Source: a virus. From it: a stretch of DNA of 37,455 nt. Position 1 is the stretch's first letter; every line of letters begins with the position of its first letter. Below the pieces are notes generated by a model. That model ran no database searches. It saw nothing but the letters and a program-made list of their open reading frames with translations, and had not been told where the DNA came from. Both the position numbers and the translations under genes were made by a program. The stretch lies in UHGV virus genome UHGV-0248180; one strand, given 5' to 3'. Below are positions 1-23,612 of the stretch, piece by piece.

Positions 1-93
1 AGGACCGATAACTTTAATATCATTCACTGTACGACCAAAATCTTCTGAAACACATTTCATAAAGAAGTTGAACAGTTCGCCGTAATTATCCAT
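1..93 (-). repeat. Left arm of a perfect inverted repeat; exact reverse complement of 137..229 (first 31 codons of the downstream ORF), truncated by the window edge
   Basis: Manual reverse-complement of 137..229 matches 1..93 base for base; 43-nt spacer at 94..136. Confidence 0.8.
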
Positions 94-136
94 TCAACTA
101 TCAACTACTGATACAGAAAACAACTTGGAGAATGAA

Positions 137-400
137 ATGGATAATTACGGCGAACTGTTCAACTTCTTTATGAAATGTGTTTCAGAAGATTTTGGTCGTA
201 CAGTGAATGATATTAAAGTTATCGGTCCTGACCATCCGATGTTTGAAACTTATGCAGTAATGGGTAATGAAGACGGTCAGTGGTATACTGTAAAGGTTGT
301 GATTAACATGTTCACTGCTGAAGGTTATGTTAAACTGTCTTCTAAAGTTTACCATGATAACGATGAAATCGCAGAAGAATATTTCAATAATATGAAATAA
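137..400 (+). CDS. hypothetical protein (87 aa)
   Basis: ORF with GGAG Shine-Dalgarno at 127-130; ORF-track start at 125 is a TTG, first ATG is 137. Confidence 0.5.
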   Translation: MDNYGELFNFFMKCVSEDFGRTVNDIKVIGPDHPMFETYAVMGNEDGQWYTVKVVINMFTAEGYVKLSSKVYHDNDEIAEEYFNNMK

Positions 401-469
401 TTGTGTACAAACACCAAGGACGGTGTTATTATAGACTTATCAAAACAAATACAGAAAACGGAGAAATAA

Positions 470-646
470 ATGACTACTTTAATTATTTGGTTTGACGAAA
501 ATGAAGAAACATACTGCGTGAACATTGGCGAAAGCCCAATGCCAGAATTTGAATCTTCAGATAAAAACTCGGTTGTATCTTGGGCTGAAGGTTATAAAGC
601 AGCAAAAGGCGATGTTGAAATAGTTTACAAACTATCCGGAGTATAA
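470..646 (+). CDS. hypothetical small protein (58 aa)
   Basis: ORF below track cutoff, GGAG RBS at 461-464 and ATG at 470. Confidence 0.4.
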   Translation: MTTLIIWFDENEETYCVNIGESPMPEFESSDKNSVVSWAEGYKAAKGDVEIVYKLSGV

Positions 647-689
647 TACTCTCGTGGATTTTAAATCTTAATTAACCTAAGGAAATACT

Positions 690-1283
690 ATGAACACACT
701 GAAGAAAATTGTTGAGTTTATTCGCACTAAACTTGGTTCTGCTATGGCTAAAAATCTATCTATTGAAGAGCAGTATACCGCTGCGGCAGCAAAACTACTT
801 GATAAGATTAAAGACCTAAAAACTGCTTCCGTTAAATCTATTAATGAAGAAAAACGTATTCGTGAACTTATTGTCGAAAAGAATCGACAAGCCGAATCAA
901 AAGAGCGCGAAATTCGCAAGCTTCTTTCCGAAGGTCAAGATGTAACAATGCATGCTAAACTTGGTTTACTATATCGTCGAACAGCTGAGCAGTTGACTAC
1001 TAAAGCTGATGGTTATGCTGAAATGCGAATTGAAATCGCCAAGAAAGTAGTTGAGTTAGATGATGCTCGCCAAGAACTTGCAGTTAAATTGGAATATATC
1101 CGTGAAACTCGTGCTGCGAATGCCCTCGGAATTAGTACTGCTGATGATGTAGTTGAAATTGCAGCACTGACTAAGGTTGATATTGAAGATACTCTTGCTC
1201 GAGTTGAAACCTTTAATGGCAATATTTCTGGGGTTGAAACTACCTCTGCCGATGTTCAGGAATACATTAATTCTCTGAAATAA
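690..1283 (+). CDS. hypothetical protein, predicted alpha-helical/coiled-coil (197 aa)
   Basis: ORF with AAGGAAA RBS; charged heptad-like sequence; followed by hairpin terminator. Confidence 0.6.
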
Positions 1284-1289
1284 TGATAA

Positions 1290-1311
1290 GGGGCTTCGGC
1301 CCCTATTACTT
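1290..1311 (+). terminator. UUCG-tetraloop hairpin (GGGGC-TTCG-GCCCC) followed by T-rich tract
   Basis: Stem-loop read directly from sequence. Confidence 0.6.
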
Positions 1312-1324
1312 GGAGTAAATAGGA

Positions 1325-1930
1325 ATGAAAATGCAAAGTGATTTCAATTCAATGTTTGAAGAGTTCCAAAGACAGGTTGATGTTCCAGATCAATTACTAA
1401 ATGCTCTTAAACGTATGGCAGAAGGACGTAATTACTATTGGGGGTCTTCATATGAAACTGATGAAAGTCTTTCTGGATTTTATAAAGGTAAAAAGTCTTT
1501 AATACGTCCTGGAATACTCATTAAAAGCATTGAATCAATTCATTCATTGACGTGTGATTTTGATGTTGAATTTACTGATTTCATTTCTCCTGAATGGACA
1601 GTTTGTTATTTAAACGACGATTATGATTATCTTGGCGTTTATAGTTTAAGTGACGCATGGTTTAAACGTAATTTACAAAAGTCAAATTTATTTTATATTG
1701 ATACTACGGTAAAATTTCAGGGAAAGAAATATTTCTTTACTCTTATAGTTGATTCTGAAACGAAGCATGAAAATAAACGTATTCTTAGTAAAAAGAATAT
1801 CTTAACTATTGTTGATGATCTTTTTGATAAATTCGTGGAAAATCCCAATTTTGAAAGCGATTTATTACTAGAAAAATTTGTGAAGGAATGCAGAGAATAT
1901 GTCAAAGCCATCAATGTATCTTCCAAGTAA
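1325..1930 (+). CDS. hypothetical protein (201 aa), C-terminal FVKECR tail motif
   Basis: ORF with GGAG RBS at 1312-1315. Confidence 0.6.
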   Translation: MKMQSDFNSMFEEFQRQVDVPDQLLNALKRMAEGRNYYWGSSYETDESLSGFYKGKKSLIRPGILIKSIESIHSLTCDFDVEFTDFISPEWTVCYLNDDYDYLGVYSLSDAWFKRNLQKSNLFYIDTTVKFQGKKYFFTLIVDSETKHENKRILSKKNILTIVDDLFDKFVENPNFESDLLLEKFVKECREYVKAINVSSK

Positions 1931-2291
1931 ACCCTTAAAGTATGAATTAAAGCGTCAGATAATTTCTACTGATGTATTAATAGGTCCTGTTATACTCATA
2001 TCATTTGTAATTCTATTGATTATTGGAGGTGTTTTAGATGTTATGACTGATATTGATTCTGGCGAAATACTTGTATTAATGCTAATTCTTCCATTAATAG
2101 TTCCACTTTTATTAGTACCTGTAAATTGGGTAGGATACTGGTATCAAGGAAGACATTATCGTAAACGCGTACGTGATTGGAAAGCACAGTGTGAAAAGAT
2201 TAAAAAGGAACACCAGCTTAAACTTGCTGCGTATGAATTTGATGAAATTATGAAATTTGTTAAGGAATCACGATGCAAAAGCCAAAACTAA
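1899..2291 (+). CDS. hypothetical membrane protein (130 aa), two predicted TM helices, C-terminal FVKESRCK motif
   Basis: ORF; hydrophobic segments; start uncertain (overlaps upstream gene by 32 nt). Confidence 0.5.
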   Translation: MSKPSMYLPSKPLKYELKRQIISTDVLIGPVILISFVILLIIGGVLDVMTDIDSGEILVLMLILPLIVPLLLVPVNWVGYWYQGRHYRKRVRDWKAQCEKIKKEHQLKLAAYEFDEIMKFVKESRCKSQN

Positions 2292-2647
2292 ATAAAGTCA
2301 AATATTCGCTTCCTGAGTCATTTTTAATTTTTGCTGTGGCGTTGGCTGCAGCTCTTGCTGGTAGTCTTATTGGATTAATGATTGATTGTATTATTTTAAA
2401 CATCCGCAGTAATGTCAGCGGTATAGTAGATATAATAGAAGTTTGGAGTGAACTTCATTATACTATAGCGATTTCATTATTTTCATTCTTTGGTATTATT
2501 TTATATTTTCATTATGATAATTTTAAAATAAATTGGCAAAGAAAAAAGGATTACAAAATACAATTAAAAGAATATAATAACTACATGTCTTATATTGAAA
2601 ATGAATCAATGAAAGAATTCGTGAATGATTGTAGGAAAATCAAATGA
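2273..2647 (+). CDS. hypothetical membrane protein (124 aa), C-terminal FVNDCRK motif
   Basis: ORF; hydrophobic segments; paralogous tail shared with neighbours. Confidence 0.55.
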   Translation: MQKPKLNKVKYSLPESFLIFAVALAAALAGSLIGLMIDCIILNIRSNVSGIVDIIEVWSELHYTIAISLFSFFGIILYFHYDNFKINWQRKKDYKIQLKEYNNYMSYIENESMKEFVNDCRKIK

Positions 2648-3128
2648 TTTTAAAAACTCGCTGGTATGATTTAGATGATGGGGATGATGGCATTTCAGTT
2701 GATAGAGTTGACTGGAATGGCTGTTCCGAAGATATGAAAAATTTGCTGATTAGGGAGTTTAGAATGGGATATCAACCAGTTAAGCCATCTACTGCAACAG
2801 ATGATAAATTCGTGTGTATTCATAATGGTCGCGCTAAATTAACGAACACTGATTGGTTCACAGATAAGATTATGATTCTGTGGTATATTATTAGTTTTCC
2901 TGTGACATCATTTATATTTTGCTTCTTTGGAGAAAGTCCAGTAGACAGAACGGGAGATTGGATTATTTTAACCATACTTGTTAATATTTTTACAGCAGCA
3001 ATATTATCTGGGATATGGTACACGTTCATTGAAATGCCATGGCGTTTACGCAGACAGCAAAAGATTTATGATGAAAAGAAATATGCTCAAAATTTAAATA
3101 GCTTTATCACTGAATGCAGGAAATTAAA

Positions 3129-3132: not shown

Positions 3133-4101
<969 letters not shown>

Positions 4102-4105
4102 AGTT

Positions 4106-4135
4106 GTTTACTTTCTCCTAAAACTGTGATAGTAT
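4106..4135 (+). promoter_or_regulatory. T4 early-type promoter (GTTTAC-N18-TGaTAGTAT)
   Basis: -35-like GTTTAC 4106-4111, extended -10 TGn + TAGTAT 4127-4135. Confidence 0.55.
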
Positions 4136-4172
4136 ATTCACAGTTACTAATTAAAATATTTAAAGGAAACAC

Positions 4173-4490
4173 ATGAAAACGTATAAAGAATTTATTGCAG
4201 AATCTGCTGCAGGACAACGTGTAGAAGGCGGTTATATCTGGATTGAACAAGTTGAGCCGCCAAGTCGCACTTCTACAGGTAAATGGAAAATCACTGTTGA
4301 TGGTCCTGGTGGTAAACGTAGGACTCTTAAAGAAATTAACGGGTACTATGAAGAAGCTCTTTCTGACGCGGGTACTTATATGATGCAAATCATGATTAAA
4401 AACCCAGAAAATCGTTTTGCGGCTAGAGTTTTCCGCCGTATTGGAAATAAGCTTTATGATGCATATTCTAAAAACTTCCCTAAAGAATAA
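4173..4490 (+). CDS. Capsid-targeted internal protein (105 aa) with N-terminal CTS MKTYKEFIAE
   Basis: N-terminal capsid targeting sequence typical of T-even internal proteins; located in the ip locus next to e. Confidence 0.75.
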   Translation: MKTYKEFIAESAAGQRVEGGYIWIEQVEPPSRTSTGKWKITVDGPGGKRRTLKEINGYYEEALSDAGTYMMQIMIKNPENRFAARVFRRIGNKLYDAYSKNFPKE

Positions 4491-4506
4491 AAATTAAAGG
4501 ATACAC

Positions 4507-4980
4507 ATGAAAACATATCAAGAATTTATTACTGAAGCAGCTATTAATTCTCAAATTATTGCTGAATCTTTTACTGATCTTTTGAAATTTAAAAAAGGAC
4601 AGAAAATCACTGCTGTATTGGATGACGGTACAGAAGTTGAGATGGATGTACAAGGATATAATTATGCAGTAGATGGAAAACTGTATAATAAATCTCATGC
4701 TAAATTTGATTCATTTGACGACTTTGTTAATACAGTTGAAGATGAAAAAACTCGTAGATCCATTGCAACGGGTGATGCTAAGGTTCTTATGGCACATGGC
4801 CATGAACGCATTCGCGCTAAGCAGAATAAAATGGGTGAAGATAATTTTGCATTAGTTGGTTATCAATCTGGTAAACAAACTTATGGTTATCAACGTACTG
4901 CTACCATGTATAACAAAAATGGTAAAATTGCCTTTGTGAATAGTAAAGGTTCTATTCAGTACGTCAAATCATTCAAATAA
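4507..4980 (+). CDS. Capsid-targeted internal protein (157 aa) with N-terminal CTS MKTYQEFITE
   Basis: CTS motif; leader and RBS nearly identical to the preceding ip gene. Confidence 0.75.
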   Translation: MKTYQEFITEAAINSQIIAESFTDLLKFKKGQKITAVLDDGTEVEMDVQGYNYAVDGKLYNKSHAKFDSFDDFVNTVEDEKTRRSIATGDAKVLMAHGHERIRAKQNKMGEDNFALVGYQSGKQTYGYQRTATMYNKNGKIAFVNSKGSIQYVKSFK

Positions 4981-5073
4981 TATGGGAACAACCTGGACCT
5001 TATGATTCTATAAGGGATTCCCGCCAACCTGTAATAAGGTCGAGCCTGAGTGCGGTAATGGGTAAATACAGAA

Positions 5074-5661
5074 ATGGACAATTCATGCGCCATGGAATGG
5101 CCCAAATTTAGAGAGAATAAAATGAGAACATTTTTAACTGGCCCGTATCTATCCCTGATGAATGCTTTTACACACCATTCTGATGCTAGAGTAGAAGAAA
5201 TTTGTAAAAACGAATATATCCCGCCATTTGAAGAATTACTTAAACAGTACTGCACACTTCGTATAGATGGTGGACGTCAATCCGGTAAATCAATTGCTGT
5301 GACTAACTTTGCTGCTAATTGGCTGTATGATGGCGGAACAGTTATTGTTCTTTCTAATACTTCAGCTTACGCTAAAATTTCTGCAAATAACATTAAAAAG
5401 GAATTTTCGCGTTATTCTAATGATGATATACGTTTTCGTTTATTTACTGATTCTGTGCGCAGTTTTATTGGTAATAAAGGAAGTAAGTTCAGAGGTTTAT
5501 CGCTTTCGCGAATTTTGTATATAATTGATGAGCCTGTCAAATCTCCTGATATGGATAAGATTTATAGCGTCCATATTGACACTGTACACTACTGCTGTAA
5601 TAGTAAATGTTGCATTGGTGGTATTACTCGTCCGCAGTTTTTCGTAATCGGAATGCAATGA
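5074..5661 (+). CDS. hypothetical P-loop NTPase-like protein (Walker A GGRQSGKS, Walker B-like ILYIIDEP)
   Basis: ORF; motifs read from translation; alternative start at ATG 5122; occupies the position where T4 carries denV. Confidence 0.55.
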   Translation: MDNSCAMEWPKFRENKMRTFLTGPYLSLMNAFTHHSDARVEEICKNEYIPPFEELLKQYCTLRIDGGRQSGKSIAVTNFAANWLYDGGTVIVLSNTSAYAKISANNIKKEFSRYSNDDIRFRLFTDSVRSFIGNKGSKFRGLSLSRILYIIDEPVKSPDMDKIYSVHIDTVHYCCNSKCCIGGITRPQFFVIGMQ

Positions 5662-5987
5662 TGACAGACACACAGCTTTTCGAATATCTTTATTTTTCGC
5701 CAAAAACTATTAAAAATAAATTGGTGAATCATTTTGAAATTTTGGCAAATAACAACATTTTGAGCGAATTTTATCCCAAGCAATACAAATTACAAAAAGG
5801 CGTATTCAAAGGATGCAGAGTTTTGTGTACTGCTCCTAACGCGCAGTTAATGAATAAAATTCCATATTTTACCATGGAATTTATTGATGGACCTTTTAAA
5901 GGACTAATCACCCAAAGTTTAATGGCATATGATTCTGAGCCATTTTTAATTAAAGAACAATCTTGGATAAATTTATTTTCTAATTGA
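5658..5987 (+). CDS. hypothetical protein (109 aa)
   Basis: ORF starting in an ATGATGA overlap with upstream stop. Confidence 0.5.
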
Positions 5988-5994
5988 GGTTTAT

Positions 5995-6357
5995 ATGAAA
6001 GCATATCAAATTCTTGAAGGCACACATAAAGGTACTATTTATTTTGAAGATGGTATTCAAGCACGAATTATTGTCTCTAAAACCTTTAAAGAGGACTCTT
6101 TTGTAGACCCAGAAATTTTCTATGGTTTGCATGCCCGTGAAATTGAAATTGAGCAACAGCCTACAGTTAAAATTGAAGGTGGTCAACACCTGAACGTTAA
6201 CGTTCTGCGTCGCGAAACTCTGGAAGATGCAGTTAAGCATCCGGAAAAATATCCGCAGCTGACCATCCGTGTATCCGGTTATGCAGTTCGCTTTAACTCT
6301 CTGACTCCGGAACAGCAGCGCGACGTTATTGCTCGTACCTTTACTGAGAGTTTGTAA
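5995..6357 (+). CDS. Autonomous glycyl-radical cofactor, GrcA/YfiD-like (120 aa)
   Basis: C-terminal ~65 aa ([60 protein letters not shown]) match E. coli GrcA as I recall it, including glycyl-radical motif RVSGY; codon usage of that segment is host-like. Confidence 0.9.
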
Positions 6358-6578
6358 TGGCAAAGATAATTATTGAAGGTTCTAAAGATGTGCTAAATGC
6401 TTTCGCCGAGTGGTTTAGTAATTCAGGCGAACAGCAATTTAATGAAGCGTGGAACATAGGTGATATTGATGGAATTTATCCTACGACAGAAATTTCTGTT
6501 CAGGGATATGGCATTCATGAACCTATTCGTTTAGTTGAATATGATTTATGTACTGGTGAGGAAGTCAAATATGATTGA
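6357..6578 (+). CDS. hypothetical protein (73 aa)
   Basis: ORF, TAATG overlap with upstream gene. Confidence 0.45.
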   Translation: MAKIIIEGSKDVLNAFAEWFSNSGEQQFNEAWNIGDIDGIYPTTEISVQGYGIHEPIRLVEYDLCTGEEVKYD

Positions 6579-6837
6579 AGATATTAAGGGTTATAAACCA
6601 CATACTGAAGAGAAAATCGGTAAAGTGAATGCTATTAAAGACGCTGAAGTTCGTTTAGGACTTATCTTTGACGCTTTATACGATGAATTCTGGGAAGCAC
6701 TAGATAATTGTGAAGATGATGAACTCGCGAAGAATTATGCTGAAAGCCTCGATCAGTTAACTATTGCTAAAACGAAACTCAAAGAAGCCAGTATGTGGGC
6801 TTGTCGTGCAGTGTTCCAACCAGAGGAAAAATACTAA
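6571..6837 (+). CDS. hypothetical protein (88 aa)
   Basis: ORF with GAGGAA RBS before ATG 6571. Confidence 0.45.
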
Positions 6838-9569: not shown

Positions 9570-9751
9570 GTTTAAGCAAAGAACAAAAAGACAAACTCTT
9601 TTCTCTTATCCACGAAGTTATGGATAAAAACAGTGAATTGGAAAAAGTTTGTGATGAATGCGGTCCTTTTAATGCAAATGAATACGAAGAACTTTCTAAA
9701 GAATTCGATAATAAAGAACAAGAACTCATTGATTATATAAATTCTTTATGA
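9566..9751 (+). CDS. hypothetical small acidic helical protein (61 aa), member of a small paralog family
   Basis: ORF; shares N-terminal xxEQKxK(L/I)F motif and acidic C-terminus with 9748 ORF. Confidence 0.5.
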   Translation: MSLSKEQKDKLFSLIHEVMDKNSELEKVCDECGPFNANEYEELSKEFDNKEQELIDYINSL

Positions 9752-9936
9752 TTACTCGCGAACAAAAGAACGAAATATTATTTTTAGTTGGTGAAATTAT
9801 TAGTTTAGAAAAGGATTTGTCTTTTGAATTATCTTCTGATTATGGAGATGCCGAAACATATTACGAATTAGTAAAATTTATCGATAAAGCTGAAAATGAT
9901 TTAGAAACATATTTAGAAAATTTAACTAAGGACTAA
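9748..9936 (+). CDS. hypothetical small acidic helical protein (62 aa), paralog of 9566 ORF
   Basis: ORF; ATGA overlap. Confidence 0.5.
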   Translation: MITREQKNEILFLVGEIISLEKDLSFELSSDYGDAETYYELVKFIDKAENDLETYLENLTKD

Positions 9937-9937
9937 A

Positions 9938-10519
9938 ATGGCGAGTTTAATTTTTACTTATGCAGCAATGAATGCTGGAAAATCTGCTTCTCTTTTGACT
10001 GCTGCACATAATTATAAAGAACGCGGAATGGGTGTATTAGTTCTTAAACCTGCTATTGATACTCGCGATTCTGTCTGTGAAGTCGTTTCTCGCATTGGAA
10101 TTAAACAGGAAGCGAATATTATTACGGATGATATGGATATTTTTGAGTTCTATAAATGGGCTGAAGCACAAAAAGATATTCATTGCGTATTTGTAGATGA
10201 AGCTCAGTTTTTAAAAACTGAACAGGTGCACCAATTAAGCCGAATTGTTGATACATATAATGTTCCTGTTATGGCTTATGGATTAAGGACTGATTTCGCT
10301 GGAAAATTGTTTGAAGGTTCTAAAGAACTTTTAGCGATTGCAGATAAACTTATTGAACTAAAGGCAGTTTGTCATTGCGGCAAAAAAGCGATTATGACAG
10401 CTCGATTAATGGAAGATGGAACACCAGTTAAAGAAGGTAATCAAATCTGTATTGGTGATGAAATTTATGTTTCTTTGTGCAGAAAACATTGGAATGAATT
10501 AACTAAAAAGCTTGGTTAG
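9938..10519 (+). CDS. tk: Thymidine kinase (193 aa)
   Basis: P-loop MNAGKS, zinc ribbon CHCGKKA..CRKH; matches T4 Tk from memory. Confidence 0.95.
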   Translation: MASLIFTYAAMNAGKSASLLTAAHNYKERGMGVLVLKPAIDTRDSVCEVVSRIGIKQEANIITDDMDIFEFYKWAEAQKDIHCVFVDEAQFLKTEQVHQLSRIVDTYNVPVMAYGLRTDFAGKLFEGSKELLAIADKLIELKAVCHCGKKAIMTARLMEDGTPVKEGNQICIGDEIYVSLCRKHWNELTKKLG

Positions 10520-13550: not shown

Positions 13551-13997
13551 ATGATTATTAATGAAAACTCTTGGCACGTTCGTATGCATGATTTCTTTTA
13601 CTGGCAGCGTCCGAATTCTTTGTGTAAATATTTCTGGAAAATGGCGTGGACGTTCTTAGTTATCGGTGTTATTTGCATATCGGGGCTATTAGGTAGTTGG
13701 GTGGTAGGACAAGCCATTTTAAGCCAATTTGGCGTTACAGGATTCTGGCTTCTACACGCAGGCGGAACCTTATTTGGTGTACTGATATTTGCTACGATTG
13801 TCATTATTGCAGTAGGTATAGCATATATTATAGCTAAGATTTCAGGTTTATGGGAAGGAGTCAGGTATGATAGAGAGTGGAAGCGTCAACAAGACGAAGA
13901 AAATGGTATTGAACATCCTAAGAGTGTAATCGTTGAATACCTTAAAGCTAGTAAATCTAAAATCTGCCCTATGATAGAATTTAAGGATGTTAAATGA
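13551..13997 (+). CDS. hypothetical integral membrane protein (148 aa)
   Basis: ORF; long hydrophobic segments (WTFLVIGVICISGLLGSWVV... GTLFGVLIFATIVIIAVGIAYII). Confidence 0.6.
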   Translation: MIINENSWHVRMHDFFYWQRPNSLCKYFWKMAWTFLVIGVICISGLLGSWVVGQAILSQFGVTGFWLLHAGGTLFGVLIFATIVIIAVGIAYIIAKISGLWEGVRYDREWKRQQDEENGIEHPKSVIVEYLKASKSKICPMIEFKDVK

Positions 13998-15006: not shown

Positions 15007-15031
15007 GGGAGCCTTCGGGCTCCCTTTTTTT
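15007..15031 (+). terminator. Rho-independent terminator (GGGAGCC-TTCG-GGCTCCC + T7)
   Basis: Perfect 7-bp GC-rich stem, UUCG loop, T tract. Confidence 0.85.
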
Positions 15032-15055: not shown

Positions 15056-15085
15056 GTTTACAAGCATAAAGCTTTATGGTACTAT
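15056..15085 (+). promoter_or_regulatory. T4 early promoter (GTTTAC-N18-TGgTACTAT) with conserved leader ACAACTATCAACT
   Basis: GTTTAC 15056-15061; TGg TACTAT 15077-15085. Confidence 0.65.
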
Positions 15086-15119
15086 ACAACTATCAACTGA
15101 TACGGATTTGGAGAATAAA

Positions 15120-16088
15120 ATGAAAACTGTAACTATTAATAAGGGTATCTATTTCGGTAAAGAAATCTCTGGAACTTTTGAGCTCTTAGGCGAATGGTTC
15201 CCAGATAATGCTCCGGTAGATGCACAAGGAGATGGTAAAGTTTTTGTTGAAATTGACGGTAAACGTCGCGGTGTTTGGGTTTACAAATCCGATATTTCAT
15301 ATGATGGTGTAAAAGTTGAAGAAGTTAAAGAATCATATGAAGATATGAAAACCCGCATTAATAAAAGATTTAATGTTATGGGAATGATGACGAATGGTAT
15401 TATTAACGGAAACATTCGTTCATTAATTATCTCTGGTGCGGCAGGTATTGGTAAAACGTATTCTTTAGATAAAGCTTTAAATAAAGCAAATGATGTTGGA
15501 TACATTGAGTATAAAAGCATTAATGGTAAAATCTCTGGTATCGGTCTTTATGAGCAGCTCTGGAATAATCGTGAAGAGAATTCTGTCCTTTTGATTGATG
15601 ATGTGGATGTTTTCTCTGATATGGACATTCTTAATCTTCTAAAAGCTGCTCTGGACACTGGAGAGACCCGTAAAGTCTGCTGGAGCACTGCATCTTCTTA
15701 CTTAGAAGAAAAAGGCATTGACCGTGAGTTTGAATTTAAAGGAACGATTGTTTTTATCACAAACGTTGACATTGACCGCGAATTAGATCGCGGAACTAAA
15801 CTTGCTCCACACCTACAAGCATTAGTGTCCCGCTCAGTTTATTTAGATTTAGGTGTTCACACTAATGAAGAAATTATGGTCAGGGTTGAAGATGTTATTC
15901 TTTCAACTGACATGATGCAAAAGCGTGGTCTTTCTGATGAAGAAACTTATAAAGCATTATCATGGATGAAAGTTAATGTTAATCGTTTACGCAATGTTTC
16001 ACTGCGTACTGCTCTTTATCTTGCTGACTTTATTATGACCGACAAAAACGGTTGGGAAGAAATCGCTGAGGTTACTCTTCTGAAATAA
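15120..16088 (+). CDS. Predicted AAA+-type P-loop ATPase (322 aa)
   Basis: Walker A GAAGIGKT, Walker B VLLIDDVD, sensor-like FITN; GGAG RBS; track start 14952 reads through the promoter. Confidence 0.7.
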   Translation: MKTVTINKGIYFGKEISGTFELLGEWFPDNAPVDAQGDGKVFVEIDGKRRGVWVYKSDISYDGVKVEEVKESYEDMKTRINKRFNVMGMMTNGIINGNIRSLIISGAAGIGKTYSLDKALNKANDVGYIEYKSINGKISGIGLYEQLWNNREENSVLLIDDVDVFSDMDILNLLKAALDTGETRKVCWSTASSYLEEKGIDREFEFKGTIVFITNVDIDRELDRGTKLAPHLQALVSRSVYLDLGVHTNEEIMVRVEDVILSTDMMQKRGLSDEETYKALSWMKVNVNRLRNVSLRTALYLADFIMTDKNGWEEIAEVTLLK

Positions 16089-16177
16089 TTCATAAGAGGA
16101 CTTCTATGACAAAAAGGCAGTTCAGAAATAGATTATATGGACTGCCATTAAAAAGATGACTAGAATTAAACTGGTGA

Positions 16178-16492
16178 ATGGAGGTAATGATGTTATACTC
16201 AAAGGCTCGTGAAATTTACGAAACTAAAATTAAAGAAGCAGTATTCCAGTTCGCAACGACAATGCGATGGACAAATGATTGGGAGTATTCAAAAAATCAT
16301 AAGAAGCCCATGGTGACAAGAAAGGCTCATATGTTAGTGTTAATAGACCGTGAGCAGATTAAAGCCCGAGAAGCCCTCCAGAATCATAAAAAGGCTGCCT
16401 TTGAATGGTTTATGGATAACACTGCTCCTGAGACTAAGAAAGCAGTGAGCGCTTGGTTCAGTGGAAAAAATTGTGAAAGAAGTTTCTTTTAG
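16178..16492 (+). CDS. hypothetical protein (~100 aa; start ambiguous among ATG 16178/16187/16190)
   Basis: ORF with GGAGG RBS. Confidence 0.5.
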   Translation: MEVMMLYSKAREIYETKIKEAVFQFATTMRWTNDWEYSKNHKKPMVTRKAHMLVLIDREQIKAREALQNHKKAAFEWFMDNTAPETKKAVSAWFSGKNCERSFF

Positions 16493-16494
16493 TT

Positions 16495-16524
16495 GTTTAC
16501 AAGACTGTTCCTCTGTGGTACTAT
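16495..16524 (+). promoter_or_regulatory. T4 early promoter (GTTTAC-N18-TGgTACTAT) with conserved leader ACAACTATCAACT
   Basis: GTTTAC 16495-16500; TGg TACTAT 16516-16524. Confidence 0.65.
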
Positions 16525-16552
16525 ACAACTATCAACTACGGAGGAACAGAAA

Positions 16553-17080
16553 ATGAATGCTAAAGATATTTTCAACCTGGTAAATTACAACGATGGTAAA
16601 TTTAAATCAGAAGCACAAAGCAAGTTCTTTAATGACATCTCAATCGGAGGTGAAATCACGGTTGATGGAGGACAGATTTACAAATCCCGTTGGAATTGGA
16701 TCGTTATTATTGATGAGATTGGTATTGTAGAAATTTACAAAAATACGAATAAAAATCGTACATTGCACTGGTCTCGTGATACTAACGAACAGTACAAAAA
16801 GGATAAAGCATCTAAATTATCTCGTGTAACTCAAGAAGATATTGAGTTTATCAAGAAAGATATTTTAATGTATGATAACTTAATTGCTGAAGAGCAAGCT
16901 GTTATTGATAAATTTGACGAGATTAAAGCTTCTCGTGAAATTCCTGATTTTATGAAAGAATCAGTAAATGAACGATACACTCTCATTTCAGAGCGTATTG
17001 AAACTTACAAAAAGCAAAGAGCTGAACGCCAAAATACTCTTCGGAAGTTTGAAGAACGGTTAAAGACGGTACTCGCATAA
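16553..17080 (+). CDS. hypothetical protein (175 aa) with C-terminal coiled-coil-like region
   Basis: ORF with GGAGGA RBS; track start 16493 reads through promoter. Confidence 0.6.
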   Translation: MNAKDIFNLVNYNDGKFKSEAQSKFFNDISIGGEITVDGGQIYKSRWNWIVIIDEIGIVEIYKNTNKNRTLHWSRDTNEQYKKDKASKLSRVTQEDIEFIKKDILMYDNLIAEEQAVIDKFDEIKASREIPDFMKESVNERYTLISERIETYKKQRAERQNTLRKFEERLKTVLA

Positions 17081-17106
17081 CCGCTTTATACCAAGGATGG
17101 TATAAT
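17077..17106 (+). promoter_or_regulatory. Candidate extended -10 promoter (TGgTATAAT) lacking a good -35
   Basis: TGg TATAAT at 17098-17106. Confidence 0.3.
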
Positions 17107-17135
17107 GGTTCTAAGCCCTTTTAATTGAGATTATT

Positions 17136-17543
17136 ATGAAACAGTTGATAATTAAAAGATTGAATTTATTGATATGTTGTTTATGTGTAGTAATTGCATA
17201 TGGTTATTACGCAATTAATGATTATATGCATTATAAAGATTATGATGTTACTGTAGTTAATACCATTACAGGAACACAAGGAAAAGGGTCTAGTTTATTG
17301 TTTATTGCCGTATATGAACTCAAAGATGGTTATAGATTTAGTGAATATATTTCCCCAGAGATGTATTCTTCAATAGAAAAAGGTGATAATATTACTGTAA
17401 GTTTACGTCCTTTCGACGTAAAACAGACATTGTTTGATAATATTGTTTGGTTCTTTGGAATGGTATTAGTTCAATCTGTGTGTGGTGCTTATATAGTCTG
17501 TTCCATCTTATTCTGTATATTTAGTAAAATTGAAATTGAGTGA
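17136..17543 (+). CDS. hypothetical membrane protein (135 aa), N- and C-terminal TM segments
   Basis: ORF; hydrophobic termini. Confidence 0.55.
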   Translation: MKQLIIKRLNLLICCLCVVIAYGYYAINDYMHYKDYDVTVVNTITGTQGKGSSLLFIAVYELKDGYRFSEYISPEMYSSIEKGDNITVSLRPFDVKQTLFDNIVWFFGMVLVQSVCGAYIVCSILFCIFSKIEIE

Positions 17544-17550
17544 GGAAAAT

Positions 17551-18441
17551 ATGTCAGTAGTAATTAATAATGTCAATGCAGTAATTAAATCTTTAGTTAA
17601 TAAAAAAATGATGAATGAATGGACTGTATTTCGCAGTGCAGAGCCAGATAAATTTTTTCATAGATTTAACTCAACTTTGGATTTGAATGTTATTGACAGA
17701 GATGTTCATGCAGAAATTTTAGATAAGTTTAAAGTTGATATTGGATTTGGATTAGAAAAACATTTGCAGCGAACAAACGGATCTGGAATGAGTTTATCTA
17801 ATCGCATTATGAAAGCCCTTAATAAAATTGGAGCATTGTCTCGTATTAATGCGAGTGAAATCCTTCGTAATTATAATAAAGGATATGACCTTTATGGTCG
17901 ACTAATGCCAAAATTATCATTCGATCAAATGATTGCGGATTTGTGGGAAAATCAAAGACGATTATTAGCATTAGGCGCTCGATTAGCTAAAGGTCTAGAT
18001 AAACAAATGATTTTTAAGACCAATAATACAGAAGACCTTAAATGCTTTAAATTTAGTATTCGTGGCGATGATTATTACATCAGAGCTCGCTCTACAGATT
18101 ATGTTAATATGGGGCATCATCTCTGTTTAGCTTTTGAAGTTTTAAAAGAAGCTGGAACATTAGAATATTCATCTGGTGCAAAATGCCCTATTGGTTCAAG
18201 TTGTATTTTAATTTATCGCCCGGATGAATCCAGTTCAACTAAATTGCCTACGAAACCTGTACCAGTTCGTAGTAACGAAAAACACTCTGAACAAATTGAT
18301 TATTTTAATAAACAGATTGAAGAGCTGAATATTTCTATTCAACAATATGATGATGAAATTTTCAGACTATCTGGACTGAGTAGTAAAGCTAAATCTGAGC
18401 GTGAAAAGTTAATTAAAATTGTCGATTTACTTAAATCTTAA
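17551..18441 (+). CDS. hypothetical protein (296 aa), member 1 of a 4-gene paralog array, C-terminal coiled coil
   Basis: ORF with GAGGAAA RBS; shared architecture with following three genes. Confidence 0.6.
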   Translation: MSVVINNVNAVIKSLVNKKMMNEWTVFRSAEPDKFFHRFNSTLDLNVIDRDVHAEILDKFKVDIGFGLEKHLQRTNGSGMSLSNRIMKALNKIGALSRINASEILRNYNKGYDLYGRLMPKLSFDQMIADLWENQRRLLALGARLAKGLDKQMIFKTNNTEDLKCFKFSIRGDDYYIRARSTDYVNMGHHLCLAFEVLKEAGTLEYSSGAKCPIGSSCILIYRPDESSSTKLPTKPVPVRSNEKHSEQIDYFNKQIEELNISIQQYDDEIFRLSGLSSKAKSEREKLIKIVDLLKS

Positions 18442-18449
18442 GGAACACC

Positions 18450-19469
18450 ATGAAAACTCGTTCTCAAATTGAAGATATGGTTCGTAATGCCAGCTATACT
18501 CGTGATGTTATGACATTTTTGTGCCAAAATAATTTAGACCCTGATAAAGTTAATCGTGATATTCACTTTAAATATATGAATAGCAGTGAATGGTTACGTC
18601 ATTTTAGTAAAGCGGGGTATATTACACAAATGACGGCTCGTGAGCAGCTCACCGATTTCTGTAAAACTATTGATTATAAAAATCCTCTATTTGTTCAAGG
18701 CGTTGGTCAGAGTAAGGTTGATTTATCATCTGGATTTTTTAATCCAAATCATTATCGTATTGAGTGGAGATTTATTGCTCTATTCCGTAAACAATTAAAG
18801 CAAATTTTGTCGACGGCTAGTCGATTAAAAGGTTCTGATATTAACTTAAAGAATCTGAAATTTGATGGTTATACTCTTCAGATGGAAGTAAGACCATTAA
18901 AAGAAAATAACAGAACTGCACGAATTAGCTTTAAACCTAATACAAAAAATTCTCTTTCAATTTGTGAATGCCTTAAATCACAGTTGACAGAAGCATTTAA
19001 GTATATGGATGTAGTTGCCGCGGTTCAGTCTAAGATTTTACCTCATTTTGAGCGAAATTGGGAACATACAGCAACGTATGAACTTGATATGATCGTTTCA
19101 TTTAAATACGATTTTTTGAGAAAGGACGAAGTCCCGCAAGAGAAAAAGCAGGAAGTGCAAGATATCTTAAATTTATCCAATTACTCATCAAACGATCCTA
19201 AATTTTGGATGTATAGTTCAGGTAATAAAGATACATGGAAATTCAATAAAGTGAATTTTCTTCCTGTTGAAAATCCGAGTCTTAAACCTGTTGAAAAATG
19301 GCACGCGGATGCGATTGAGAAGTCTATCAAGGCAGTAGATGATGAACTCGTTAAAGCAACTAATGAAGTGTTAGAAGCTGAAAAGATGCTAGAAAAAGCT
19401 CAAGAAAAAGTCAAAAATCTTACGAAGCAACGTTCTAAACTGAACAACGCACTAAATGCACTAAACTAG
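18450..19469 (+). CDS. hypothetical protein (339 aa), paralog array member 2
   Basis: ORF with AGGA RBS; central motif WRFIALFRKQLKQILSTASRL; coiled-coil tail. Confidence 0.6.
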   Translation: MKTRSQIEDMVRNASYTRDVMTFLCQNNLDPDKVNRDIHFKYMNSSEWLRHFSKAGYITQMTAREQLTDFCKTIDYKNPLFVQGVGQSKVDLSSGFFNPNHYRIEWRFIALFRKQLKQILSTASRLKGSDINLKNLKFDGYTLQMEVRPLKENNRTARISFKPNTKNSLSICECLKSQLTEAFKYMDVVAAVQSKILPHFERNWEHTATYELDMIVSFKYDFLRKDEVPQEKKQEVQDILNLSNYSSNDPKFWMYSSGNKDTWKFNKVNFLPVENPSLKPVEKWHADAIEKSIKAVDDELVKATNEVLEAEKMLEKAQEKVKNLTKQRSKLNNALNALN

Positions 19470-19498
19470 TTTACTTTGCCACAAGGATGTGGTATAAT
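19469..19498 (+). promoter_or_regulatory. T4 early promoter (GTTTAC-N18-TGgTATAAT)
   Basis: GTTTAC 19469-19474; TGg TATAAT 19490-19498. Confidence 0.65.
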
Positions 19499-19526
19499 GT
19501 TCTTACTTTCTACTGAGGAGATTAAT

Positions 19527-20528
19527 ATGACTCGTAACGAATATATCAAATCATTCAATAGCGTTATTGATGATAAAGTTAAACCTGTGTTTAGTCAGAA
19601 TAGTGTTATTTCCATTATCAATCAATGGCTCAATAATATTGATGCAAGTATTGTTTCTTCAAGCAAATTTATTCATGAAGTTCATAAAATTTCTAGTCGC
19701 GAATATAAAGATGATATTAAGGAAACTTTTAAAGGTTCTCGTCTTCTTTCATATTTAGTTAATCAAGATATTCTTGGTAAATTTGGGAAAGAAATTAAAC
19801 GAACTAAAGATGTAGTAGGATACAGTTGGTTCGGTGATGTTAATTCTTATCATCTTAATAATAAAGAAGACCCTGAGAATATTTTTACTCGTCGTTGGAT
19901 TAGTAATTTTAGACTTTTCAAGAAGCAAATTCTAAAATCAGCTTCTAAATTATGCTATGGTGATTATCGTCAAATCCATCCTTGGGCTTCTGATATGATT
20001 ATCATAAAAGAATATGAGCTTGATAAAAATAAAGCAGCTATTTTTGTGAATTATGAATTTTTTACACCAGAAGCTAATCAAAAGAACATTAATAAATTTT
20101 TCTCAATTGCTAGCGATATAACTCGTCAGTTAGAGACCGCATTACTTTGTATGGAAACAGTAGAAAATATTTATACTTATCCTTTTAAGAATATATGCGG
20201 TTGGGAAGGATATAAAATTGTAGTTAGTCTCCGTGAAGTAAAGTGTGCGTACTCACCGACTGATAAAGAAATTTACCAACAAAAATGTGATGAAATTGTG
20301 AATACTCCTAAAGAAGAAACTACCCTTGAGGAACTAATGGAATGTCTTGACGATTCGCCTGAACCAGTAGAAATTCGTCCAGAAGTTATTGCACTAGAAA
20401 AAGCTTATAAAGAAGTTCTAGAAATTTCTAATAAAGCGCAGAAAGAATATGAGCAGGCTAAAAGGATTTGGGAAGAATCTGTTAATCGCCTGGATCGTCT
20501 TGAACAAGCTTTACAGTTAATTAAGTAA
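19527..20528 (+). CDS. hypothetical protein (333 aa), paralog array member 3
   Basis: ORF with GAGGAG RBS; central motif RRWISNFRLFKKQILKSASKL; coiled-coil tail. Confidence 0.6.
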   Translation: MTRNEYIKSFNSVIDDKVKPVFSQNSVISIINQWLNNIDASIVSSSKFIHEVHKISSREYKDDIKETFKGSRLLSYLVNQDILGKFGKEIKRTKDVVGYSWFGDVNSYHLNNKEDPENIFTRRWISNFRLFKKQILKSASKLCYGDYRQIHPWASDMIIIKEYELDKNKAAIFVNYEFFTPEANQKNINKFFSIASDITRQLETALLCMETVENIYTYPFKNICGWEGYKIVVSLREVKCAYSPTDKEIYQQKCDEIVNTPKEETTLEELMECLDDSPEPVEIRPEVIALEKAYKEVLEISNKAQKEYEQAKRIWEESVNRLDRLEQALQLIK

Positions 20529-23399: not shown

Positions 23400-23435
23400 A
23401 AAAACTCAAAATTCTTTTTCTGACAAGGCATTTTA

Positions 23436-23612
23436 ATGAAAACCGAATTGGTTTATACTGAAAAGTTAAATGGCGGTAAGGTTTGGAAACTTTTTATTAA
23501 AGGACATTCTACGGACCCTCATATGACCACTTGCGTAGGAACCTATTCTCGTCCTACTAAAAAGATGATTCGACAGTATAAACGATTGCATCGAATGTTT
23601 TACAATACTTAA
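23436..23612 (+). CDS. small ORF (58 aa) whose last 15 codons duplicate the C-terminus of Pin
   Basis: ORF below track cutoff; 48-nt segment 23565-23612 is ~87% identical to 23352-23399. Confidence 0.35.
   Translation: MKTELVYTEKLNGGKVWKLFIKGHSTDPHMTTCVGTYSRPTKKMIRQYKRLHRMFYNT

Follow-up and report, generated by a model that had tools for sequence, protein, structure and literature searches.

The window, as we call the whole 37,455-nucleotide stretch of DNA analysed here, is a fragment of a mosaic Tequatrovirus (T4-like) genome that extends from gene e.8 to the start of gene 62, with the genes arranged as in T4 (e.8, nudE, the lysozyme gene e, denV, regB, tk, nrdD, 47/46, 45/44 and the start of 62). 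In 168-kb genomes the collinear region, e.8 to gene 62, is an internal segment. The first 3 kb are matched by 651 phage records, and phage vB_EcoM_G2540 (L012; hereafter G2540) is 99.9% identical over positions 95–3000. Beyond the first 3 kb the identity to G2540 is about 96–98%, or 94–98.6% per aligned block, and the stretches at about 4090–6814, 9616–9938, 13576–13929 and 23402–23565 have no G2540 alignment. Between 4 and 28 kb none of the deposited phages exceeds about 96.5–96.7% identity, so the same strain was not found among them, nor is it represented by the eight contigs that encode exactly the NrdD protein of the window, and the phage looks like an undescribed Tequatrovirus strain with a new mosaic.

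The first gene, e.8, is intact and ordinary. It is named as such in the annotations of RB51 and AR1, a coding sequence lies at the same place in G2540, and the exact e.8 protein is widespread, occurring in 1305 blocks of a contig collection. A mechanical list of open reading frames begins e.8 at a TTG at position 125 (91 aa), as against the ATG at 137 (87 aa); the ATG is favoured by the Shine-Dalgarno sequence GGAG at 127–130, by the G2540 annotation and by the exact-protein look-up. The features at the left end of the window, together with two internal sites used for comparison, are listed in Table 1.

Table 1. Features at the left end of the window and at two paralogous promoter sites.
Feature	Positions	Strand	Remarks
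Left arm	1..94	-	Inverted copy of A + ATG + 30 codons of e.8; judged non-native (chimeric)
False partial ORF MDNYGELFNFFMKCVSEDFGRTVNDIKVIGP	within 1..94	-	Exits at the sequence start; from translation of the left arm
Putative chimeric junction	94..95	.	T94 (complement of A136) joined to C95, the first native base
Spacer (loop)	95..135	+	Native e.8 leader; begins at promoter position -5 (promoter itself missing) and ends just ahead of A136
Right arm	136..229	+	Native; A136 + first 31 codons (ATG + 30) of e.8
Gene e.8, 87 aa, Pfam PF26879 Phage_T4_Y07A	137..400	+	Intact, ordinary
Internal control 1, intact early promoter + CAACTATCAACT	15057..15098	+	TTTACA 15057-15062, N17, TGG-TACTAT 15080-15085, A
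Internal control 2, intact early promoter + CAACTATCAACT	16496..16537	+	TTTACA 16496-16501, N17, TGG-TACTAT 16519-16524, A

Positions 1–94 are the exact reverse complement of 136–229, with 94 of 94 positions complementary both by a repeat finder and by direct string comparison; the divergence between the arms is therefore zero, and a spacer of 41 nt (95–135) separates them. This pair is the sole inverted repeat of at least 30 nt in the window. Folded as single-stranded DNA, positions 1–229 form a single 94-bp stem with an energy of -111.9 kcal/mol, compared with -18.2 +/- 3.2 kcal/mol for shuffled sequences (z = -29.5), and a chance origin of the repeat is excluded. A search of the whole window at a threshold of 30 nt, together with inspection of the right end, gave no counterpart of the repeat there. 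The left arm begins at base 1, and its outer end is cut by the start of the sequence, as an earlier sequence-only reading of this DNA had stated; the start of the window is assumed to be the start of the contig. That reading had described a perfect 93-bp repeat with a 43-nt spacer and a boundary falling exactly at the ATG. The perfect repeat is present, but each arm is one base longer (94 nt), which leaves 41 nt for the spacer, and the right arm starts at A136, one base before the ATG. Its statement that this arm contains the ATG and 30 codons of the first gene is correct, with A136 in addition, and the gene is T4 e.8 (Phage_T4_Y07A). The closeness of the arm boundary to the start codon looks coincidental, as the two are off by one base and no mechanism ties the boundary to translation.

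Comparison with related phages places the limit of shared sequence at the inner end of the left arm. The alignments of all 651 matching phage records, G2540 among them, start at window position 95, or in a few cases at 92, where A92 and T93 happen to match, and at the junction the window is identical to G2540 from 95 onward. In G2540 the leader CAACTATCAACT is preceded by a T4 early promoter, in which CACAAAACTGTTTACATCCCTGTTCTTCCATGGTACTATA is followed immediately by CAACTATC, with a -35 box, a 17-nt spacer, an extended TG and the -10 hexamer TACTAT; farther upstream of this promoter lie a terminator and then a tRNA cluster. The early promoters of T4 are unusually complete, comprising UP, -35, TGn and -10 elements (PMC2988021).

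The relatives compared were G2540 and ten independent long contigs whose e.8 protein is identical to that of the window (11 loci), the ten being the longest among those with the exact e.8 protein. The alignment anchor was not found in L002 and L008, and the upstream comparison covers the other eight of the ten contigs. The promoter, GTTTACA-N17-TGGTACTATA, stands directly before the CAACTATC leader in G2540 and in 8/10 contigs; in L011 the A after the -10 box is present as elsewhere, but the leader has diverged there (TCAATATC). The first 40 nt of the left arm have no plus-strand copy in these 11 loci. T4-like phages vary in what precedes e.8, and the upstream ORFs differ among L002–L011.

One of these contigs, the 353-kb metagenome contig L009 (ena:ERZ724095 NODE_1_length_353259), has a peculiarity of its own. 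At about 16020–20264 its T4-like genes end after the Gly_radical gene, and immediately past this point it carries genes that look bacterial and chromosomal (LysE, LysR, a DEAD-box helicase, a methyltransferase and an FAD-binding oxidase). Because T4-type phages do not integrate, L009 is probably a phage/host chimeric contig, a case of misjoining in assemblies of T4-type phages additional to the one proposed below.

The window also contains its own controls. The 12-mer leader CAACTATCAACT recurs twice, at 15087 and 16526, each time behind an intact early promoter (Table 1), and TTTACA-N17-TGGTACTATA thus directly precedes CAACTATCAAC both in the relatives and at two paralogous sites of the same genome. 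The two internal promoter units share 23–24 identical bases with the e.8 promoter of the relatives, and among the three leader copies in the window it is only at the copy at 95 that the promoter is lost. Twelve plus-strand matches to GTTTAC-N18-20-TAnnnT are present in the window. Positions 1–135 have no promoter match on the plus strand, the spacer containing only the leader and the Shine-Dalgarno sequence of the right copy. The break lies inside the promoter/leader unit, 2 nt past the -10 hexamer; counting the customary 7 nt from that hexamer puts the predicted +1 at about position 100, about 5 nt downstream of the break.

The sequence-only reading had remarked that no promoter lies upstream of the leader; none is found on the plus strand of 1–94, and this proved to be the key clue. 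It had also given the spacer as beginning with the leader motif TCAACTATCAACT, of which the leader from C95 stands, whereas T94 belongs to the inverted arm. A comparison with related genomes, which it had proposed, gives the promoter, and not the inverted arm, before the leader in all of the relatives aligned there. An early promoter should thus precede e.8 in this phage as well, where the upstream sequence of the strain itself is assumed from the relatives and from the paralogous sites. As a separate observation, the promoter at 15057 is preceded by a GC stem-loop and a T-run (GGGAGCCTTCGGGCTCCC TTTTTTT, at about 15007–15031), a PeSL-like arrangement (see below).

The junction at 94|95 has no counterpart in the phage records and contig collections searched. 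An A precedes CAACTATC in G2540, seven other aligned relatives and both internal paralogous sites; the window carries T94 there. Microhomology at the junction is 0 nt, whether it is compared with the native upstream sequence or with the continuation of the arm. A query spanning the junction is covered by 0/574 matching phage records, exact searches of IMG/VR, JGI metagenome contigs and GTDB genomes gave no match to a 34-mer spanning the join, and facing e.8 starts with any 20–50 nt between them have no match in viral or metagenome contigs.

There is also no native inverted repeat of at least 6 nt near the junction, and for this reason a de Bruijn graph could not have turned at this place unaided; chimeric molecules or reads spanning the junction are needed. 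A turn-round of the graph in which such reads play no part is rejected, as no native inverted repeat of that length flanks the spacer. A contig break caused simply by the 23–24-nt promoter repeat (15057 and 16496) is likewise rejected, because the assembly runs uninterrupted through both internal copies and the break lies mid-repeat, away from the edges. The promoter repeat may nevertheless have made the true upstream path fragile.

From these comparisons, bases 1–94 very probably do not belong to the phage genome but represent the tail of a fold-back (inverted) chimera, retained where the contig ends. The native phage sequence starts at 95; leftward of it the contig reverses onto the opposite strand and follows 136 to 229 until it stops. 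The arms are identical, the repeat is terminal with a truncated outer arm, the conserved promoter has been replaced, and the junction is reproduced in no independent sequence, all of which supports the fold-back assembly chimera at a contig end that was one of the two explanations offered from the sequence alone. The form of the join supports a chimera too, as an inverted join between nearby points is the dominant class of library chimeras. The inverted repeat of 1–94 is almost certainly not a real feature of the phage and would have no biological function.

Such a contig end could arise in a few steps. A strand switch during synthesis, or a joining event within one molecule, to a point 41 nt away would give a chimeric molecule or read, and the assembler would have taken the chimeric path if the true upstream path was missing or pruned. 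Tip-clipping would remove a short true path that ended dead, and the fold-back path, anchored at both ends, would survive it. The variability of the upstream region among relatives, combined with the shared 23–24-nt promoter repeat, could have made the true path such a short dead end. More speculatively, the contig may have halted on re-entering k-mers that were already used, in which case the arm would have a length of k-1, fitting a k of about 95; to our knowledge a k of about 95 is not a default of common assemblers, which counts against this last idea. A read-length limit could likewise account for the 94 nt. Three further real contig ends, on the left of L019 and on both sides of L020, have no fold-back, and such ends are not routine.

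Self-priming of the kind seen in MDA or with single-stranded DNA would leave at least 2 bp of complementarity at the junction, and 0 nt is found here. A junction lacking microhomology does not support the specific MDA chemistry, and the MDA-type subtype of chimera is thus not supported, with the qualification that 6.5% of proximal inverted MDA chimeras likewise have no complementarity (PMC1855051).

A strand switch could also have occurred before the DNA was extracted. The contig end would then represent a real but rare DNA species from infected cells, formed by strand switching at a fork or by fold-back repair of a break near a very strong promoter, and assembled at a coverage gap, which we regard as unlikely. 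The position of the junction suits such an origin, since -5 of this 'uber' early promoter (PMC2988021) would, from its geometry, lie in the region that is melted in the open complex, and the blunt junction, being atypical of MDA chimeras, is in its favour as well. Inverted duplications arising by template switching in replication have reportedly been documented in other systems, and we count this on the same side. Against it, the sequence offers nothing that separates a species formed in the cell from a chimera formed in vitro, and a fold-back at e.8 is seen in no other assembly searched, which gives no hint of a hot spot; were this origin correct, the repeat would still be no feature of the packaged genome. 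The more specific form, in which an inverted-dimer or hairpin intermediate is produced in infected cells by a strand switch at the melted early promoter (leaving at -5 and returning 41 nt downstream), has a slightly lower probability again. If it were true, the fold-back would be a trace left by a conflict between transcription and replication in a T4-like phage. A variant in which a large inverted duplication starting from e.8 has become fixed in a viable genome is still less likely.

That the repeat is a genuine, fixed inverted duplication, with a divergent second e.8 (and perhaps more genes) extending leftward and the 41-nt leader between the two copies, is very unlikely, although the given sequence does read that way. 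The arm is cut by the start of the window, so its true extent may exceed 94 nt, and the variability of the region upstream of e.8 among T4-like phages and the mosaic nature of the window would also accommodate it. In such an arrangement, however, the stretch between the two e.8 copies would hold no promoter, and the left copy would lack any leader. The arrangement is absent from the 651 related phage records and from three contig collections, the arms show zero divergence, and the breakpoint cuts through a promoter/leader unit and is not at a module boundary. Moreover, E. coli and its phages do not stably maintain long perfect palindromes (SbcCD; T4 gp46/47 and endonuclease VII); Pfam domains of endonuclease VII and of gp46/47-type nucleases are present in the relatives across the region homologous to the window. 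The divergent twin gene, the other explanation offered from the sequence alone, thus fails on the relatives, none of which has it, on the empty gapped search for facing starts, and on the lack of a promoter between the copies.

An RNA-derived contig, in which first-strand cDNA of the e.8 early mRNA forms a hairpin and primes itself where the RNA has its 5' end, is highly improbable, the least favoured of these explanations. The native sequence does start within a few bases of the predicted transcription start, and an untranscribed gap between terminator and promoter upstream would break a contig built from RNA. Position 95, however, corresponds to -5, just 2 nt beyond the -10 hexamer, a distance too short for a start site, and the start is predicted at about 100; bases 95–99 match untranscribed DNA of the relatives, the 3' end of the cDNA has no pairing with the priming site, and an uninterrupted 37-kb contig across many terminators is unlikely for RNA. 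A hairpin at an RNA 5' end is therefore rejected, as the native sequence begins at -5 and not at +1. A terminal inverted repeat or hairpin telomere is rejected because the window is internal to a T4-type genome and has no repeat at its other end.

The probable fold-back chimera has practical consequences, and bases 1–94 should be removed ahead of any use of the contig. Left in place, they yield a false 31-aa partial paralogue of e.8 on the minus strand, they suggest falsely that e.8 is promoterless, and the false 94-bp hairpin or 'terminal inverted repeat' could pass for a regulatory structure, a duplication or the end of a genome. The locus also provides an example of how such a tail may be recognised independently of reads, in that the outer arm replaces a sequence that is kept both by the relatives and at paralogous sites of the same genome.

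Several known systems place an inverted repeat or a promoter unit in a comparable position. As in the inverted terminal repeats of phi29 and PRD1 and the hairpin ends of N15, the repeat here lies at a sequence end; those structures, however, relate the two ends of a genome to each other or close a dedicated site, whereas here the repeat is contained within one end only. T4-type genomes are circularly permuted, without fixed ends.

PeSL cassettes, which consist of a terminator followed by an early promoter, mediate the shuffling of modules in T4-type phages (PMC2839356, PMC4122927). The element displaced here is likewise an early-promoter unit, strongly conserved and present at two further sites of the window, and units of this kind mark mosaic boundaries in such genomes. 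Exchange at PeSLs, in contrast, is homologous recombination between direct copies, which swaps modules and leaves no inverted copy of the gene that follows; the present break lies within the unit and shows no homology.

Fold-back or palindromic long reads reportedly run into their own reverse complement and contaminate assemblies (PMC12870357, PMC13141652, PMC6218980). The contig end resembles them in that its sequence continues into its own reverse complement. Long-read palindromes usually turn at the end of a fragment with little or no spacer and extend for kilobases, whereas the present repeat has an asymmetric 41-nt spacer and 94 nt visible.

The contig end also resembles chimeras of libraries and amplification. 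Among MDA chimeras 85% are inverted, and where an inverted join links nearby segments it mostly lies within a single molecule (PMC1855051, Lasken and Stockwell 2007); at least 2 bp of complementarity is present in 93.5% of the proximal inverted ones (PMC1855051). Inverted-repeat artefact fragments that derive from adjacent single-stranded DNA have also been described (PMC8458033). The contig end differs from most proximal inverted MDA chimeras in its 0 nt of junction microhomology. It is like the library and amplification chimeras (PMC1855051, PMC8458033) in joining, in inverted orientation, two points that are tens of nucleotides apart, with the intervening segment present once, and it shares with them perfectly identical arms and a junction that occurs in one data set only.
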